A program made the position numbers and the translations under genes. This document shows positions 1 through 15,824 of a stretch of 64,000 bases of DNA, in pieces. A model generated the notes under the pieces. The model saw only the letters and a program-made list of their open reading frames with translations. It was not told the DNA's origin and made no database searches. This DNA comes from an uncultured Anaerolineaceae bacterium (GTDB lineage: Bacteria > Chloroflexota > Anaerolineae > Aggregatilineales > Aggregatilineaceae), in assembly GCA_964472565.1 (NCBI GenBank), contig CAYYNB010000010.1, forward strand, positions 253 to 64,252. The letters are read 5' to 3'. Position 1 is the stretch's first letter. Each line of letters starts with the position of its first letter.

Positions 1-721
1 ACGTCCAGATCAAACAGGCAACATAGTTGTTTAAAATCAAATAGGGCAGAATGAGGAATATCACCGTAAAAACATAGGCTATGCCGGTATAAATGGCTGA
101 TTTGAGCGGGTTTTGTTTGGTTTGTTCACCCTGCGAAGCCTGCGTCGAGAGATATTCCGAAGCGGCCATTGATAAAGAAGCTGAAATGCCGGTAATAAAG
201 CCCGCCAATGCGATCACCTGTGTATCTTGGAAGGCAAAAGTCAGGCCTGCCAGTGCGCCCGTTAGCTCAACCAGAGCATCATTCAGTCCCAGCACGACAG
301 AGCCAATATATTTCAGACTCTCCTCATCGATCATATCGATGAGTTCGGTTTCGTGTTGTTCTTCTTCTTTGAGAACGCCTTCAATTTCTGGAAGGGATTG
401 GAGAATGCTGGCGTAACTCTTCTGTCCGGCCTCTTCTCCTTTTTCCATCAATTTGATTGCAAAAGTCAGACCAAACAGCTTGGCAATCCAAAAGTAAAGC
501 CGCACCTTGAACTGATCGGGCTGAACATCGGTTTGAGTGTAATTTTTCCAGATCAGATAGTGTTGGTATTCTTGCTCAGCAATTTGATGCAGGGTTTCCT
601 TGTTATGACTATCCGTTACCATTTCCGCCAGCTTATGATACATGTGATAGCTGGCTATCTCGGCTTTTTGCATGACCAGAAGCTGCCCACGCAGCTCAGG
701 TTTGATCGTTTGGACATCCAT
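1..721 (-). CDS. VIT1/CCC1-family metal transporter with N-terminal ferritin/rubrerythrin-like domain (3' end runs off the window)
   Basis: My own minus-strand translation from the ATG at 721-719 gives MDVQTIKPELRGQLLVMQKAEIASYHMYHKLAEM...EEEQHETELIDMIDEE. This is followed by Gly/Ala-rich TM segments (GSVVLGLNDALVELTGALAGL, ASLSMAASEYLS, IAYVFTVIFLILPYLIL). The frame is open to position 1, so the gene is missing from the ORF track. Confidence 0.7.
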   Translation of the reverse strand, partial: MDVQTIKPELRGQLLVMQKAEIASYHMYHKLAEMVTDSHNKETLHQIAEQEYQHYLIWKNYTQTDVQPDQFKVRLYFWIAKLFGLTFAIKLMEKGEEAGQKSYASILQSLPEIEGVLKEEEQHETELIDMIDEESLKYIGSVVLGLNDALVELTGALAGLTFAFQDTQVIALAGFITGISASLSMAASEYLSTQASQGEQTKQNPLKSAIYTGIAYVFTVIFLILPYLILNNYVACLIWT

Positions 722-754
722 CGTGTGTTTTCTCCATTAGGCGTGTAGCTAAAA

Positions 755-1681
755 TTATGATTCGGCAGCAAGCGGGCGTAAGTCAGCATTTTCAGGCGCA
801 AATACAAAATCCCAGAATGCGGCTCGTGCTTCTTGTGCGCGAAAATCGGTATTACGCGCCATATAGAGTTTTTGTACCAATTGCAGCCCTTCAACCGGAA
901 TACTCACCGCGAGTTCTTCATGTAAAACATGCCGTGTGGCAATCTGTGAGACAAATGCTGGCCCAACCCCTTCACACACTGCCTGTATAATTGCCTCTGT
1001 ATTTTCCAAAACCAACCTTGTCTGAAGCATCTCGACATTGAGATCGTACTTGGAAAGCTCGCGGTTTAGGGTGATCGATGTTCCTGAACTTGATTCGCGC
1101 AAAACAATAGGATATTCAACCAGATTTTCCGGCAGCAAACGGTCTGCTTGTGCCCAGGCATGGCCCTTCGGAACTATCAGCACAAGCTCATCATCGGCGA
1201 AGTGCTGGTACTCAATATGGTGTCGTGGAACCCGTAAACTGCTGATCGCCAGATCAACTTCCCCTGCGGTCAGGCTTTCCAATGCCTGGTCGCGTGGTCC
1301 AACCCGGCAGACCGTCCGCACATTAGGATAACAGGTCATGAAGCGCGCCATGATTTTAGGCAGAATATATTTGCCTGCTGCCGTGCTGCACCCTATTGTG
1401 AGCGTCCCCCATAACTCGCCGCGCTGCGAGCTAATCATTTCCTCCAGACAGGTCGCATCGCGCAGCAGCTTGCGCACACCGGGAACCGCCGCCTCACCAA
1501 TATCACTCAGACGAATACTGCGTCCTACCCGGTCAAATAATAGAATTCCAAGCTTTTCTTCCAATGTTTGAATATGGGCACTCACCGCCGATTGGGACAA
1601 ATTCAAGATACGCGCGGTTTCCGAAAAGTTCTCAGTTTCAGCCGCGATCAGAAAAATTTGTAGTTCATAAAGTTCAAGCAT
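755..1681 (-). CDS. LysR-family transcriptional regulator
   Basis: 308 aa. N-terminal wHTH FSETARILNLSQSAVSAHIQTLEEKLG plus a LysR-type substrate-binding body. Divergent from the cytochrome gene. Confidence 0.9.
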   Translation of the reverse strand: MLELYELQIFLIAAETENFSETARILNLSQSAVSAHIQTLEEKLGILLFDRVGRSIRLSDIGEAAVPGVRKLLRDATCLEEMISSQRGELWGTLTIGCSTAAGKYILPKIMARFMTCYPNVRTVCRVGPRDQALESLTAGEVDLAISSLRVPRHHIEYQHFADDELVLIVPKGHAWAQADRLLPENLVEYPIVLRESSSGTSITLNRELSKYDLNVEMLQTRLVLENTEAIIQAVCEGVGPAFVSQIATRHVLHEELAVSIPVEGLQLVQKLYMARNTDFRAQEARAAFWDFVFAPENADLRPLAAES

Positions 1682-1865: not shown

Positions 1866-3539
1866 ATGAAAAAATTTAACAGTAGCGGGCTGCTTGCTCT
1901 CATCGGAGGGTTGGCCACAGGTGTGGTAGTCCTGGCGGGTTGTGGACCAGATAAAACAGCCCCGGAATTTGCCCAGGTTATCCAGCCAACGACGGTAGCT
2001 CTCGAACCTACACTGGCGGCCACAATTTCTCCCAATCCGGTTATAGATACTGAATGTTTGGCTTGCCATCAGGATCAGGATCGCCTAAAAGAACTGGCAG
2101 TTGAAGACGTCCAGGCAGAAACTTTATCCGAAGGGCCTGGCTGAGGCGGCTCTGTGCCTCCGTTGGAGGCTTGGGAGAAAGTCTGGATTAACGGCGAAAC
2201 ATTTGCCAGCGATGTACATTCATATATCAACTGCACAACTTGTCACTTGGGACAATCAGTGGACGATATGGAACTGGCTCATCAGGGCTTAGTCACAGAT
2301 CCATCTGAAAACCCGGAACAGGTCTGTGCCAGTTGTCATCCAGATGTAGCACCGCATTCTGTAAATAGTTTGCATACAACGCTTGCGGGATACGATACGG
2401 TCCTCCATCAACGTAGTTCGCCCGAACATTATGAAACATTAGAACTGATGGAGTCGTATCACTGCGACTCATGTCATGCCTCCTGCGGTCAGTGTCATGT
2501 CAGCCAGCCCACATCGGTTGGCGGCGGGTTGTTAGAAGGCCATACCTTTGTTCAAACCCCGCCGATGAGCCGGACCTGTACAGGATGTCACGGCAGCCGT
2601 GTCAAAAATGAGTATTATGGTCTAAACGAAGGTTTTCCTGGCGATGTCCATCTCCGCGAAGCGCGTATGGCCTGTACGGACTGTCATACTGGAGCGGAAA
2701 TGCATGGCGGCACCGATTCGTTGGAGACCGTCGATGTATTGGTCAGTGACGGACAGGATACACCCGCTTCGAAGCCTATGACACACCGTTATGATGCGCC
2801 CCGTGAACCCACCTGTGAGTCATGCCACACGGAGCAAATCGGTGTTGGATCCGGCATACCAGAACATGAAGTCCACCCGGTAGAACTTTTGGCTTGCGAA
2901 GTTTGCCACAGCGTGAGCTACACCCACTGCACAAACTGCCATGTAGAACGAACAGAGGATGATGTTGCCTTCTACAGTATCGAGTCCCATAGTCTTGGAT
3001 TCTACATTGGCCTCAACTCGCGCACATCCGATCGCCCTTACAAATATGTCCCGGTACGTCACGTACCAGTTGACATCAATTCCTTTAGTTTCTATGGCGA
3101 AGGCTTGCTGGCGAATTTTCTGAACCGCGCCACCTGGGCGTATGCCACACCGCATAATACCCAGTTGGATACACCCCAAACCCAGACATGTTTAGCCTGT
3201 CACGAAAATGACGCCATCTTTCTGACCCCGGATAAAGTGGACCCTGCTGAATTGGACGGCGCAAATCTGGAAGTTATAGTCGAACATGCACCGGCTTTCC
3301 CCGAAGGATATGAACAATATCTGGAAGCGCAGGAAGCCGAAGCTCAGCCATCCGAGTCTGGTGAAGAAGAAACTGCGCCATCCGGCGATAGTGATGCGGA
3401 TTTCTGGGGCAGCGACAGCAGCCCAATACCTACCGAGTCCAGCAGTGATGCCGATTTTTGGGGTGAGGACAGTAGTCCTGCACCTACAGAAGCCAGTAGC
3501 GATGCCGATTTCTGGGGCAGCGACAGCACCCCTGAATAG
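1866..3539 (+). CDS. Multihaem (11 x CxxCH) c-type cytochrome lipoprotein, interrupted by an in-frame TGA at 2142-2144 (Sec/recoding candidate or pseudogene)
   Basis: GGAG lies 5 nt before the ATG at 1866. Signal peptide with lipobox LAGC. One CxxCH lies before the TGA and ten after it (CTTCH, CASCH, CDSCH, CGQCH, CTGCH, CTDCH, CESCH, CEVCH, CTNCH, CLACH). Both ORF-track pieces are in the same frame. Confidence 0.7.
2152..2174 (+). promoter_or_regulatory. Hairpin 3' of the in-frame UGA (SECIS-like candidate)
   Basis: GCCUCC-GUU-GGAGGC (2156-2170) is a perfect 6-bp stem, extendable with G-U pairs to C2152-G2174. It starts 12 nt after the UGA and has a G/U loop. Confidence 0.3.
3386..3536 (+). 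repeat. Coding tandem repeat at the cytochrome C-terminus (3 x SDADFWG-x-DS-x-P-x-PTE)
   Basis: GDSDADFWGSDSSPIPTESS / SDADFWGEDSSPAPTEAS / SDADFWGSDSTPE. The nucleotide units gatgc(g/c)gatttctggggc recur. Confidence 0.85.
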
Positions 3540-3573
3540 ATTTGAGACAAGAAGATATGGAGGCCCAGGTTAT

Positions 3574-5229
3574 ATGCGAAAACTAATTTCTTTCCTGTTT
3601 GTACTGGCACTCATTGTGCCGCTTGCACTCCCCTTTGCGCCTGTTCTGGCTCAAGATGGAACAGCCGTTGTTGCACGTCTTGAGGAGTATAATGCTAATC
3701 TGCCCAGCGGATACGGTAATGTGTCAATTACCGATCTTTCCGCTGAACTGGTGGATAACCCGGACATTCTGCTGCTTGATGTGCGCCAGCCCGAAGAATA
3801 TGCTGAGGGTCACATTGCCGGGGCATTCAACATCCCCATCCGCGATGTCGTTAAGAACCTCAATCTGCTGCCCGATCTAGACGCCAAAATTGTGGCGATA
3901 TGTGGGTCAGCATTCCGCTCTTCAATTGGCATGACCGCGCTCCAAATCTTGGGGTACACGGACGTTCGTAGCATGTCCGGCGGTATGAGTGCCTGGAAGG
4001 AAGAGGGTCTGGCTACCGTCACTGATGCGTTCACGCCCGAAGCCAGTACGGCTCCTGAAATTGATTCTGAAGTATTAGCGGCAGTCGATGCGGCGTTGTC
4101 AGGGTTGCCTGAAGGCTTTGGCGGCGTCAAAGCGGAAGATCTAAATGCCGAAATGGCGGACAATCCTCCGGCTCAGTTGATCGATGTGCGCACGCCTGAC
4201 GAATGGGCCACTGGTTACATCGCGGGTGCGGTTCACATGCCCCTCGAATCTTTTATGAGCTATGCTGGGGAACTGCCGACAGACAAAGCGGCTAATCTGG
4301 TTGTGTATTGCAAGGGTGGACATCGTGGCAATATGGTTGCCACAATGCTGCGCACGTTGGGGTATACCAATGTGCGGAATATATCAGGTGGTATTGGCGG
4401 CTGGACAACAGCCGGATTGGCAATTGAAGGCGCGGCCCCTGCTGAACCGGCTGCCGAACTCGATCTCGTCACACTGCTGGATAGCTATATTACGGGTCTG
4501 CCCAACACCTTTAACGCGGTCAAAGCCAGTGATCTGGCCGTCGAATTAGCTGAAACCCCCGATCTGCTGCTCGTCGATGTTCGCACCGTAGACGAATATG
4601 TGGAAGGACATATCGAAGGCGCGATCAACATCCCGCTGACCGAAATTACCGATCATCTGGATATGCTTCCAGCACTCGATCAACCAATGGTGATCTACTG
4701 TGGTAGCGGGCACCGTTCTGTGATGGCAATGGCTGTATTCAATCTGTTGGGTTATGTCAACGCCCGTAGTATGTTGGGCGGCGTGAAAGCCTGGACCTCC
4801 GCAGAACTACCTTTGACGACAGATGAAATTACGTATGAAGCTGGAACCGCTCCTGCTATTGACCCGGCGTTGTTCGCGGCCTTAGATGCCTATGTGAAGG
4901 CGATCCCGGCAGGTTATTATGCCATCAGCGCCGACGATCTCAATGTGGCCCTGGTTGAAACGCCACCCGCGCTCATTGATGTTCGCACTGATGAAGAAGT
5001 TGCCAATGGGATTATCGAGGGCGCACAGCATATTGAACTGCGTAGTTTTGTAGCCCAGATGAGTGCATGGCCCGCGGACAAAGCCGCTCCCATTGTGATC
5101 TACTGCGGCAGTGATCACCGTGCCGTAATCGCAATGGTGGCTATGCAGTTGATGGGCTACCAGGATGTACGCACACTTGGCGGCGGACTTCAAGCCTGGT
5201 TAGCCAAAGAATATCCTGTTGTACAGTAA
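3574..5229 (+). CDS. Secreted protein with four tandem rhodanese (sulfurtransferase) domains
   Basis: Start moved to ATG 3574 (GGAGG at 3559). Signal peptide MRKLISFLFVLALIVPLALPFAPVLAQ. Four DVR-x-x-x-EY/W modules, each with an active-site loop: CGSAFRS, CKGGHRG, CGSGHRS, CGSDHRA. Confidence 0.85.
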   Translation: MRKLISFLFVLALIVPLALPFAPVLAQDGTAVVARLEEYNANLPSGYGNVSITDLSAELVDNPDILLLDVRQPEEYAEGHIAGAFNIPIRDVVKNLNLLPDLDAKIVAICGSAFRSSIGMTALQILGYTDVRSMSGGMSAWKEEGLATVTDAFTPEASTAPEIDSEVLAAVDAALSGLPEGFGGVKAEDLNAEMADNPPAQLIDVRTPDEWATGYIAGAVHMPLESFMSYAGELPTDKAANLVVYCKGGHRGNMVATMLRTLGYTNVRNISGGIGGWTTAGLAIEGAAPAEPAAELDLVTLLDSYITGLPNTFNAVKASDLAVELAETPDLLLVDVRTVDEYVEGHIEGAINIPLTEITDHLDMLPALDQPMVIYCGSGHRSVMAMAVFNLLGYVNARSMLGGVKAWTSAELPLTTDEITYEAGTAPAIDPALFAALDAYVKAIPAGYYAISADDLNVALVETPPALIDVRTDEEVANGIIEGAQHIELRSFVAQMSAWPADKAAPIVIYCGSDHRAVIAMVAMQLMGYQDVRTLGGGLQAWLAKEYPVVQ

Positions 5230-5349: not shown

Positions 5350-6039
5350 ATGAAACGACGTTTATCTCTAATCCTGGTGCTGGTACTCGCGAGCAGTTTT
5401 GCCTGTATCTCTACCCTTTTCCCCATTTCACTATCGAGCAGCGCGAAGTCTTTCGCTGTTAGCTCGCTCACACCGTTTCGACAACTACCAGGACGCCCTA
5501 CGCCAACTTCGCGCCAGACATCTACCCCCAACCCCTCAACTGTTTCTCCTACACCGGTATATGATTGCACATCCATATTTCCGCTGGAAAATATCGAGGC
5601 GATTGAGTTTGGCCGTACGACGATTCAACAACTTGAGTCCACTTTTGGGCGTGGAACATACCATACCGGACGCCCTGTGCGGTTTAAGTTTGAAGAGGGT
5701 GGTTGTACTTTATTCGTTGAGATGGGCACCAATGAAGCACAGGAAGTTGAACTCTTGAGTTATGGCACCCTGGAAATGTTAATAGAGCGCTACGGAGAAC
5801 CCGCAACAGTGGGAATTTCACAAGGTAATCTGACATTGCTGACCGCTGATGTAGCCGTTCTTTTCTACCCCAAGCAGGGTGCCATTGCGATTTTTGACGT
5901 TAGCCCTGATTTTCTGACACCAACGACGCCTATCAGTCATTTATTTTTACGGCCAGCGTTTGAGATTGATAAACAACTGAAGCGTCTGAATGTTCAACCC
6001 GTAGAATGGGATGCGCCCTCAATTGCTCCTTCTCAGTAA
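5350..6039 (+). CDS. Hypothetical lipoprotein
   Basis: 229 aa. MKRRLSLILVLVLASSFAC signal/lipobox and a Pro/Ser/Thr-rich linker. No recognisable domain. Confidence 0.5.
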   Translation: MKRRLSLILVLVLASSFACISTLFPISLSSSAKSFAVSSLTPFRQLPGRPTPTSRQTSTPNPSTVSPTPVYDCTSIFPLENIEAIEFGRTTIQQLESTFGRGTYHTGRPVRFKFEEGGCTLFVEMGTNEAQEVELLSYGTLEMLIERYGEPATVGISQGNLTLLTADVAVLFYPKQGAIAIFDVSPDFLTPTTPISHLFLRPAFEIDKQLKRLNVQPVEWDAPSIAPSQ

Positions 6040-6104
6040 GATCGTGTAAAATTCAGCCATTCCTACCCCGTCTTTATGTTAATTCTTCGTCAAGGAGTAG
6101 ACGA

Positions 6105-6680
6105 ATGGAAAATTTTAATGAAATGGTTAAATTGTTAGGCCTCACCGATCAAATTCAGTGGGATTTTGCTCTTTATTGGCTTTTCTTTATCAACGTTATT
6201 TTGCTGATGGTCCAGCCCGAAGGCTCCGCTTTCGCAACAATGTTGGGAATTGCGGTACTTGTTTCGGCAGTGATCGATAAAACGTTTGCGTTTGGCTATA
6301 TGCTAGACCCAGGAGCCTATACACCTCAAAAATATCATGAGGAGGTCTTCATTGGCACCTATCTCGTTCGGGTTGCAATGTTTGTTGGGCCTCTAACAGT
6401 GGCTGGCTCAACAAAAGACCCAAAAGTTCGTGGGCTGGCAATCATCGCGGGCATTTCCGGTGGGGTTTATATGTTTGCCCGGTGGTTTTTCCAGCAGTAC
6501 AAATCGGATGTCAAAGGTCGTATTAGCTACCTTGACATCCAATTCGCATTGCAAGATGTTGGGTTACTGCTGCTTTTGGGGCGTGTCTGGTTGCGTCACC
6601 ACTTCACGGTAAACCGGAACATTCCAGTGACCGTACTGGGCAACGTTGCCTCGGACGACGTTGAAATAAAGATCGCGTAG
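6105..6680 (+). CDS. Hypothetical small membrane protein
   Basis: AAGGAG at 6092 then ATG 6105. About 4 hydrophobic helices. The 3' end overlaps the ilvE 3' end by 117 nt. Confidence 0.45.
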   Translation: MENFNEMVKLLGLTDQIQWDFALYWLFFINVILLMVQPEGSAFATMLGIAVLVSAVIDKTFAFGYMLDPGAYTPQKYHEEVFIGTYLVRVAMFVGPLTVAGSTKDPKVRGLAIIAGISGGVYMFARWFFQQYKSDVKGRISYLDIQFALQDVGLLLLLGRVWLRHHFTVNRNIPVTVLGNVASDDVEIKIA

Positions 6681-15750: not shown

Positions 15751-15753
15751 AAG

Positions 15754-15824
15754 AGGCGACGGTGGGAATCGAACCCACGGTAAGGGTTTTGCAGACCCGT
15801 GCCTTGCCACTTGGCGACGTCGCC
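15754..15824 (-). tRNA. tRNA-Cys (GCA)
   Basis: Reverse complement is GGCGACGTCGCCAAGTGGCAAGGCACGGGTCTGCAAAACCCTTACCGTGGGTTCGATTCCCACCGTCGCCT. It has a 7-bp acceptor stem, a GCA anticodon loop and a GGTTCGATTCC T-arm. CCA is not encoded. Confidence 0.9.

Follow-up and report, generated by a model that had tools for sequence, protein, structure and literature searches.

What is a stop codon doing in the middle of a gene for an exported multihaem cytochrome? The question is raised by a 64,000-nucleotide stretch of DNA from an uncultured Anaerolineaceae bacterium (contig CAYYNB010000010.1; the whole stretch is called the window below), in which public gene calls divide a cytochrome c gene at an in-frame UGA into two open reading frames (ORFs), 1860-2144 and 2154-3539. 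We propose that positions 1866-3539 are very probably one gene whose UGA is read as selenocysteine (Sec). Comparison of related loci shows that the UGA, an RNA hairpin just downstream of it and the codons on either side are all under selection in one frame. The best reading of these sequences is that the gene represents a previously unannotated, widespread family of 11-haem selenoproteins in the Anaerolineae (Chloroflexota).

The frame runs unbroken from ATG 1866 to the TGA at 2142-2144, through GGC GGC TCT to GTG 2154, and on to the TAG at 3537-3539; the ORF list puts the start of the upstream piece at GTG 1860. An earlier note, made from the letters of this DNA, had pointed out that the two pieces share a frame and are parted only by the TGA and those three codons, that the upstream piece alone has an export signal (lipobox LAGC) along with one CxxCH, the downstream piece having ten, and that no Cys lies within about 25 residues of the UGA. 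All of this is confirmed in the sequence. The downstream piece, from 2154, has no signal peptide, and all 11 haem sites depend on the N-terminal lipoprotein signal for export. Counting from the UGA, the first Cys is met 26 residues upstream (C67) and 30 residues downstream (C123). In 74 relatives that we reconstructed at full length, all 11 CxxCH motifs are invariant; there is no conserved non-haem cysteine among them, and 60 of the 74 proteins have no non-haem Cys at all. The UGA itself falls between haem 1 and haem 2, after an acidic linker, in an invariant glycine-flanked site, G-x-G-U-G-G. The predicted peptide across the site reads ...SLSSGPG-U-GGSVPPVEAWER, that is, ...GPG-U-GGSVPP....

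Is the UGA a lasting part of this gene or an accident in one genome? Used as a protein query, the joined sequence had 1,425 matches. Among the best 120, over 110 are Anaerolineae/Chloroflexota gene calls that span only about 82% of the query; they start just 3' of the UGA, cut at the same place as in the window. A 121-residue query spanning the UGA matched only the window's own N-terminal ORF in a protein search. For comparison we collected 80 related loci from species-representative genomes, of which 78 reach the UGA site; their identity to the window ranges from 89% down to about 45%. The TGA stands at exactly the same column in 77 of the 78, each with an upstream in-frame ORF bearing CxxCH, and the motif across loci is G-x-G-TGA-G-G-[SEDA]-[VL]-[PA]-P-x-E-x-W. 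The 78th locus, L032 (about 5860-6130), keeps ...SSGPG-TGA with frameshifts before and after it, and is either affected by assembly indels or a decaying gene. In cultured Aggregatilinea lenta, the locus BFCB01000001.1:404,800-408,400 of assembly GCA_003569045.1 is built the same way, with SSGPG-TGA-GGSVPPVEAW at the site, and its large piece (P0007) is named 'hypothetical protein'.

The codons around the UGA tell us how this region is used. At positions -3, -1, +1 and +2, Gly is invariant in the 78 loci and the third base is variable (+1: GGG 39, GGT 19, GGC 16, GGA 4; +2: GGC 49, GGT 14, GGA 10, GGG 5). Because the amino acid is fixed while the third bases vary, we conclude that translation runs in one frame through the codons before and after the UGA. 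Homologues that have no TGA are single fused ORFs (P0038, P0093, P0104, P0116 and L287).

Two simple explanations can be largely dismissed. The earlier note had considered a recent nonsense mutation in a glycine linker, and TGA is indeed one substitution away from GGA; L032, frameshifted near the site, might also be taken to suggest a pseudogene or sequencing error. However, the TGA is present in 78 of 78 loci at 45-89% identity, drawn from different assemblies, and in a cultured isolate, and purifying selection acts on both halves. The supposed linker is the invariant G-x-G-U-G-G site, where Gly occupies the UGA column in at most one distant homologue, P0281. A recent nonsense mutation, pseudogene or sequencing error is thus hardly credible, and we set aside that part of the earlier note. 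Reassignment of UGA to a sense codon is known from some uncultivated bacteria and from mycoplasmas, and a genome-wide change to Gly or Trp would also make the frame continuous, but nothing beyond the in-frame UGA speaks for it. Of 39 long ORFs in the window, 9 end with TGA, so that the genetic code is the standard one, and no TGA interrupts any other gene of the window or of the related loci. We consider the probability of reassignment next to negligible.

Further evidence comes from the RNA. Positions 2156-2170 can form a hairpin, GCCUCC-GUU-GGAGGC, whose first paired base is separated from the UGA by 11 nt. The earlier note had described it as perfect and as extendable to 2152-2174; the core stands as described, and the extension contains a U.U mismatch (2155:2171) in the window, with a G.U pair (2154:2172) flanking the core. 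The hairpin alone has a predicted energy of -10.3 kcal/mol, and a 71-nt fold of the region is unexceptional in energy (z = -0.39). Because the fold in the window alone could be due to chance, the case for the hairpin rests on the relatives rather than on energy.

In an ungapped alignment of the 78 loci (position 1 being the U of the UGA), standard pairing at the six core positions is seen in 73-78 of the 78 sequences. At pair 16:28, 29 loci have C-G and 45 have G-C, which at the protein level is seen as a coupled swap of VPPLEA to VAPLEP. Two loci show A-U instead of G-C at pair 15:29; the Val codon of L027 and L028 is GTA, which is not a start codon, and a C-to-U change on the other arm restores an A-U pair. 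Of the hairpin cells, 93.3% are paired; sliding the 3' partners by 1-3 columns lowers this to 39-51%, and none of 500 shuffles reaches the observed pairing or covariation. Codon choice is similarly constrained: Val in the hairpin is GTG in 74 of 76 cases, against 11 of 74 for a control Val nine codons later, and all 74 Glu codons are GAG, against 46 of 71 for a control Glu three codons later. Leu is TTG (56/56), Pro is mostly CCG (71/75), and the third base of the Ala/Pro codon is T in 76 of the 78 loci. Compensatory pairing and frozen synonymous sites together indicate that the hairpin is selected as RNA.

The published model of the bacterial Sec insertion sequence (bSECIS) specifies a loop of 3-9 nt with G in its first two positions, a stem of 4-16 bp, a distance of 16-37 nt between UGA and loop, and a minimum free energy of -7.5 kcal/mol or below (PMC13188914). 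The window hairpin falls within all of these limits, with a 3-nt loop, a 6-8 bp stem and 17 nt from the UGA to the loop, in agreement with the earlier suggestion that it sits where a Sec insertion sequence (SECIS) would. Across the loci, the first loop base is G in 73 of 78, usually followed by U, and the energy is -7.5 kcal/mol or below in 74 of 78. Rfam, at its gathering threshold, returned nothing at the hairpin, and such short hairpins may not be modelled there.

If the UGA encodes Sec, what do relatives have in its place? We searched 1.84 billion representatives exhaustively, using the fused homologue P0038 as query, and obtained 620 relatives. We read the UGA column in the alignment from haem 1 to haem 2, a region in which about 40 of the 150 listed relatives span the column. 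Cys is found in P0294 (GEGCGGTVPEMEAW, with the same motif, G-x-G-C-G-G), P0289, P0342, P0277 and P0280, and these Cys-bearing representatives are distant, at 34-39% identity to the P0038 query. Trp is found in P0093, P0245, P0250, P0270 and P0333, and other residues elsewhere. In this alignment, the classical exchange between Sec and Cys is seen, and only in distant members of the family. The hairpin has decayed in P0093 (TGG, loci L283/L284) and in P0038 (CTG, L286). Locus L287 (4702-6255, minus strand), from an Anaerolineales metagenome-assembled genome, has TGG within a single 517-residue ORF, with the motif G-x-G-x-G-G and most of the hairpin intact; it looks like a recent loss of Sec and of the rhodanese function described below. 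A DNA-pattern scan for Cys/Trp variants, over-strict in requiring V-[PA]-P, returned only L287 (TGG) and one chance match. It had suggested a Sec-only family without Cys homologues, an idea that was dropped when the Cys forms were found.

Genes of the Sec machinery also occur in the relatives. In L007, selA (327-1688) and the start of selB (1-320) lie 4.4-6 kb from the cytochrome gene; in L016, tRNA-Sec (2535-2630) lies 3.7 kb away; and selA-selB-tRNA-Sec clusters occur in L083-L086 and L092. At least 11 assemblies with a TGA cytochrome were matched in a SelA scan or a tRNA-Sec pattern scan (CAYRNY01, JAHDWP01, DAOTZZ01, CBINGT01, DAOTUD01, DAOUFU01, DAOTVD01, CAYMTN01, CAKZOB01, JAFGRA01 and JBBIHG01), with at least four of the matches on the cytochrome's own contig. 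A. lenta has SelA (P0192) alongside its TGA cytochrome, probably on the same contig, as both are listed with a longest contig of 907,116 bp. Several clusters list equal-sized contigs for SelA and the cytochrome, down to 7.6 and 10.2 kb, which suggests that linkage is frequent. In genomes where selA, selB or tRNA-Sec adjoins it, the cytochrome may be a principal selenoprotein. Locus L284 has selA (411-1745) beside a cytochrome that has already lost the Sec codon. The earlier note had put the UGA forward as a Sec or recoding candidate, to be checked against the Sec machinery, the matching column of orthologues and the conservation or covariation of the hairpin. The relatives speak for the candidate: selA, selB and tRNA-Sec are present among them (the window itself having none), close relatives keep TGA at the column while distant ones have Cys, and the hairpin is both conserved and co-varying.

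What might the selenol work with? Directly downstream of the cytochrome gene, the window has a gene for a secreted protein of four rhodanese domains, all of which keep the catalytic Cys loop (C-x4-[RK]; C110, C246, C376 and C511). The ORF list extends this gene back to ATG 3286, overlapping the cytochrome tail, but it almost certainly begins at ATG 3574, which opens a signal peptide (MRKLISFLF...) and has a GGAGG ribosome-binding site ahead of it, at 3559-3563. A rhodanese homologue lies directly downstream in 75 of the 78 TGA loci, and the contigs of the other three end too early, so that the count is 75 of 75 assessable loci. In the close relatives that have replaced the UGA (L283/L284, L286 and L287), the rhodanese gene is missing and the remaining neighbourhood is kept. 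A fumarylacetoacetate-hydrolase-family (FAA_hydrolase) gene, which normally comes after the rhodanese, directly follows the cytochrome in L286, and in L287, a member of a different subfamily, it is the gene for a LysR-family regulator that does so. The tally is thus 75/75 for Sec-type loci versus 0/3 for UGA-replaced ones, with losses in at least two independent lineages. This co-loss is our strongest clue to function and suggests that the selenol and the rhodanese may work together. The rhodanese partner was absent from the earlier note, as was the resemblance of the UGA region to a translation start, discussed below.

Several observations weigh against Sec. Selenium insertion itself is something we infer by comparison and not from chemistry. 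The 64-kb window contains no selA, selB, selD or tRNA-Sec, and selD was not found in the flanks around the Chloroflexota loci, although these are short enough to make that result uninformative. Close relatives without the UGA have Trp, Leu or Gln rather than Cys, and near-cognate read-through of UGA would likewise insert Trp. The sequence UGAGGNGG and the conserved GUG resemble a ribosome-binding site and start codon. Among the distant Cys-type homologues, two of the three assessable (L290 and L293) have no adjacent rhodanese; in L291, also a distant Cys-type homologue, the apparent start of a rhodanese lipoprotein follows the cytochrome. The 11 conserved non-motif histidines are enough for bis-His ligation of all 11 haems, and no open catalytic haem is evident. 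Finally, a structure model of the non-Sec homologue P0038 has a mean predicted local distance difference test (pLDDT) score of 62, with values below 50 for residues 28-116, which include the Sec-equivalent loop, and thus the placement of Sec relative to the haems cannot be read from it; a Foldseek search of this model against the PDB gave no match below E = 1.

Some of these observations could be explained if the UGA is recoded but not as Sec, through stimulated read-through by, for example, a near-cognate tRNA-Trp that places Trp or another residue at position 93. Relatives that have replaced the codon do mostly have TGG (P0093/P0116, L287, P0245, P0250, P0270 and P0333). There is also no CxxU-type redox motif, and the earlier note had counted the missing CxxU/UxxC against Sec. 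The motif is truly missing, yet the argument does not hold, as the proven selenoprotein MccSep has ..PDGUPT.. at its Sec (PMC13510729). Read-through by itself would not account for a hairpin with the spacing and loop type of a SECIS, nor for selA, selB and tRNA-Sec that co-occur with the gene and sometimes adjoin it. Moreover, the distant homologues with an intact G-x-G-C-G-G have Cys at this column, not Trp. TGG is a single-base escape from TGA, and its frequency needs no functional cause; the close relatives with TGG are without the rhodanese, suggesting that function was lost rather than replaced by an equivalent. We therefore regard read-through without Sec as unlikely. The remaining alternative takes the UGA as a true stop between two genes, one for a small monohaem lipoprotein and one for a decahaem protein re-initiated at GUG 2154 via the GAGG in UGAGGNGG. 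This is the call made by all public gene callers, and the GAGG is indeed followed, after 6-7 nt, by a codon that 74 of the 78 loci have as GTG. On the Sec reading, gene callers start a false downstream ORF (MPP/MAP) because the Shine-Dalgarno-like UGAGGNGG precedes the GUG. In cytochrome c maturation, however, haem is attached outside the cytoplasm, and the downstream piece has no signal peptide. In addition, the codons between the UGA and the GUG are kept as Gly-Gly with free third bases, L027 and L028 have the non-start GTA compensated within the hairpin, and where homologues have no TGA, the ORF is fused and Val is retained at the GUG position. Two separate genes are very unlikely, and the earlier view that the downstream piece is implausible as a stand-alone gene holds up. 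At 2142-2156 (UGAGGCGGCUCUGUG), the Sec codon overlaps the Shine-Dalgarno-like GAGG, 6-7 nt 5' of the conserved GUG. This context could permit some internal initiation or ribosome pausing.

Taking Sec insertion as our preferred reading, how might the protein work? SelB and Sec-tRNA(Sec) would use the hairpin as a bacterial SECIS element. The product would be exported via its lipoprotein signal, receive its 11 c-type haems outside the cytoplasm and be lipid-anchored on the outer face of the membrane. The selenol of Sec93 would then be the exposed, reactive nucleophile of a chalcogen oxidoreductase, taking sulfane sulfur (or selenium) from a rhodanese persulfide Cys to form a Se-S (or Se-Se) bond, which electrons from the haem chain would split. 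In many relatives, those electrons may come from menaquinol through an adjoining Qrc/NrfCD-type module. Gene linkage, co-loss and analogy put sulfur or selenium chemistry in general at about even chances. From linkage and analogy we infer the candidate substrates, namely polysulfide/S0, thiosulfate, tetrathionate or selenite, and likewise the direction of electron flow. More tentatively, the family could be a second, independently evolved class of multihaem selenoenzyme, in which a Sec without a partner Cys in its own chain forms a transient inter-protein Se-S/Se-Se bond with the rhodanese; we lean against this specific version while considering it a real possibility.

The closest known counterpart is MccSep of Geobacter sulfurreducens (ExtKL, GSU2937-2936; PDB 9wt8), a five-haem Sec cytochrome c with proven polysulfide and selenite reduction (PMC13510729). 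Both are exported multihaem cytochromes whose annotation is split by an in-frame UGA with a SECIS-like hairpin just 3', and both have Sec beside Gly and no CxxU motif, the Sec of MccSep lying in a mobile loop. By name, the MccSep gene extKL falls into the ext set along with the rhodanese lipoprotein ExtH, presumably encoded in the same Geobacter cluster, and the window gene is likewise associated with a rhodanese. In contrast to MccSep, the window protein has 11 haems rather than five, its Sec lies near the start of the chain (residue 93 of 557, between haems 1 and 2) rather than in a C-terminal immunoglobulin-like domain, it has no conserved non-haem Cys to match the haem-ligating C239 of MccSep, and it comes from Chloroflexota rather than Desulfobacterota or Nitrospirota. 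Chloroflexota are generally regarded as having no classical outer membrane, and the window cytochrome differs from MccSep in being a lipoprotein. The PDB copy searched contained 9wt8/9wt9, which were not matched at E <= 1, and the MccSep/ExtKL model NF040886 gave no match at E <= 0.01.

Other systems share parts of this arrangement. As in SECIS elements of the Escherichia coli fdhF type, and those described by bSECISearch, the hairpin is within the coding region right after the UGA and has a small loop starting with GU; the minimal fdhF element has the same 11-nt spacing between UGA and stem. Unlike the fdhF type, it is very short (a 6-bp core and a 3-nt loop) and has no evident bulged U, and SelB binding is putative. 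Sud of Wolinella succinogenes is a periplasmic rhodanese-like protein that transfers polysulfide sulfur to polysulfide reductase. Like Sud, the window rhodanese is a secreted sulfur carrier of the rhodanese type encoded with a (proposed) respiratory sulfur reductase; its partner, however, would be a haem/Sec protein instead of a molybdoenzyme, and it has four tandem domains with catalytic Cys loops. Octahaem tetrathionate reductase (OTR) and NrfA types are, like the window protein, multihaem, and act on small sulfur or nitrogen compounds. A Sec form of the OTR family is on record (PMC13188914), and the OTR model TIGR04315 gave no match to our protein. Likeness to NrfA is weak and limited to residues 105-198 (94 residues, E = 2e-5), corresponding to the NrfA haem 4/5 region; unlike NrfA, the window protein has only CxxCH motifs, with no CxxCK or Lys-ligated haem motif.

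Has this family been described before? In NCBIfam 20.0 we found no family match, the best being HmcA at E = 0.006, far below cut-off, and the ExtKL, GSU2204 and OTR models were unmatched. A May 2026 review gives the cytochrome-type selenoproteins as ExtKL, the GSU2204 family and OTR-type octahaem proteins, with no mention of Chloroflexota (PMC13188914); the present family is missing from its table. A search of full-text literature, a scope that does not extend to subscription journals or to the supplementary tables of large selenoproteome screens, returned no multihaem selenoprotein from Chloroflexi. Because MccSep, NCBIfam and the review and other literature gave no match, we class the gene as a probable new selenoprotein family on the ordinary bacterial Sec pathway, of which an earlier computational listing is possible.

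If this is correct, hundreds of public Chloroflexota genomes, A. lenta included, annotate one selenoprotein gene as two hypothetical ORFs, the larger of which is an impossible cytochrome without a signal peptide. Reading the two ORFs as one Sec-containing protein would add a third family of cytochrome-type selenoproteins to ExtKL/MccSep and the Sec forms of OTR. It would also provide a testable tie between the abundant Anaerolineae of wastewater, sediment and groundwater, usually regarded as fermenters, and extracytoplasmic redox chemistry of sulfur or selenium. The joint loss of Sec and rhodanese informs how the selenol may be used, and A. lenta, as a cultured carrier, is an experimental handle. 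Should the inter-protein Se-S reading prove true, many Anaerolineae would gain a quinol-linked respiratory or detoxifying pathway at the cell surface, directed at elemental sulfur, polysulfide or selenium oxyanions.

Table. The proposed selenoprotein gene, its parts and the neighbouring features of the window
Feature	Coordinates	Strand	Remarks
Undecahaem lipoprotein cytochrome c gene	1866..3539	+	Single frame; 557 residues; proposed Sec at residue 93
Signal peptide with lipobox LAGC, MKKFNSSGLLALIGGLATGVVVLAGC	1866..1943	+	Read from sequence; Cys26 would be the lipidated N-terminus
Haem motif 1, CLACH (C64-H68), 5' of the UGA	2055..2069	+	C64, C67 and H68 invariant in 74/74 relatives
G-P-G-UGA-G-G motif, proposed Sec93 codon at 2142-2144	2133..2150	+	TGA in 78/78 loci
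SECIS-like hairpin	2154..2172	+	Core stem 2156-2161:2165-2170; loop GUU 2162-2164
Protein body with haem motifs 2 to 11 and 11 (near-)invariant non-motif histidines	2232..3203	+	
Acidic C-terminal tail, three 18-residue repeats, each with invariant FWG	3402..3518	+	FWG columns kept in homologues
Secreted four-rhodanese-domain protein	3574..5229	+	Pfam PF00581, four stretches, E = 1e-79; signal peptide
LysR-family regulator, divergently transcribed	755..1681	-	Pfam HTH_1 and LysR_substrate
Partial ferritin-like/VIT1-type gene, left of LysR	1-750	-	
tRNA-Cys (GCA)	15753-15824	-	Sole tRNA in the window; unrelated to the finding

A LysR homologue adjoins the cytochrome gene in 56 of the 78 related loci. 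In about 40 related loci, the neighbour is a module that combines a membrane-anchored multihaem cytochrome with an Fe-S protein like DsrO/QrcC and a membrane protein like QrcD/NrfD. This Qrc/NrfCD-type module is absent from the window, where the ferritin/VIT1-like gene stands in its place. The repeat unit of the cytochrome tail (..SDADFWGSDSSP..) occurs in 2-5 copies in homologues, and the FWG-repeat tail may be an anchor in the cell envelope. The Joint Genome Institute (JGI) names several of the truncated cytochrome pieces (e.g., P0042, P0043 and P0045) 'thiosulfate/3-mercaptopyruvate sulfurtransferase'; they contain no rhodanese domain, and the name has apparently spilled over from the neighbouring gene.

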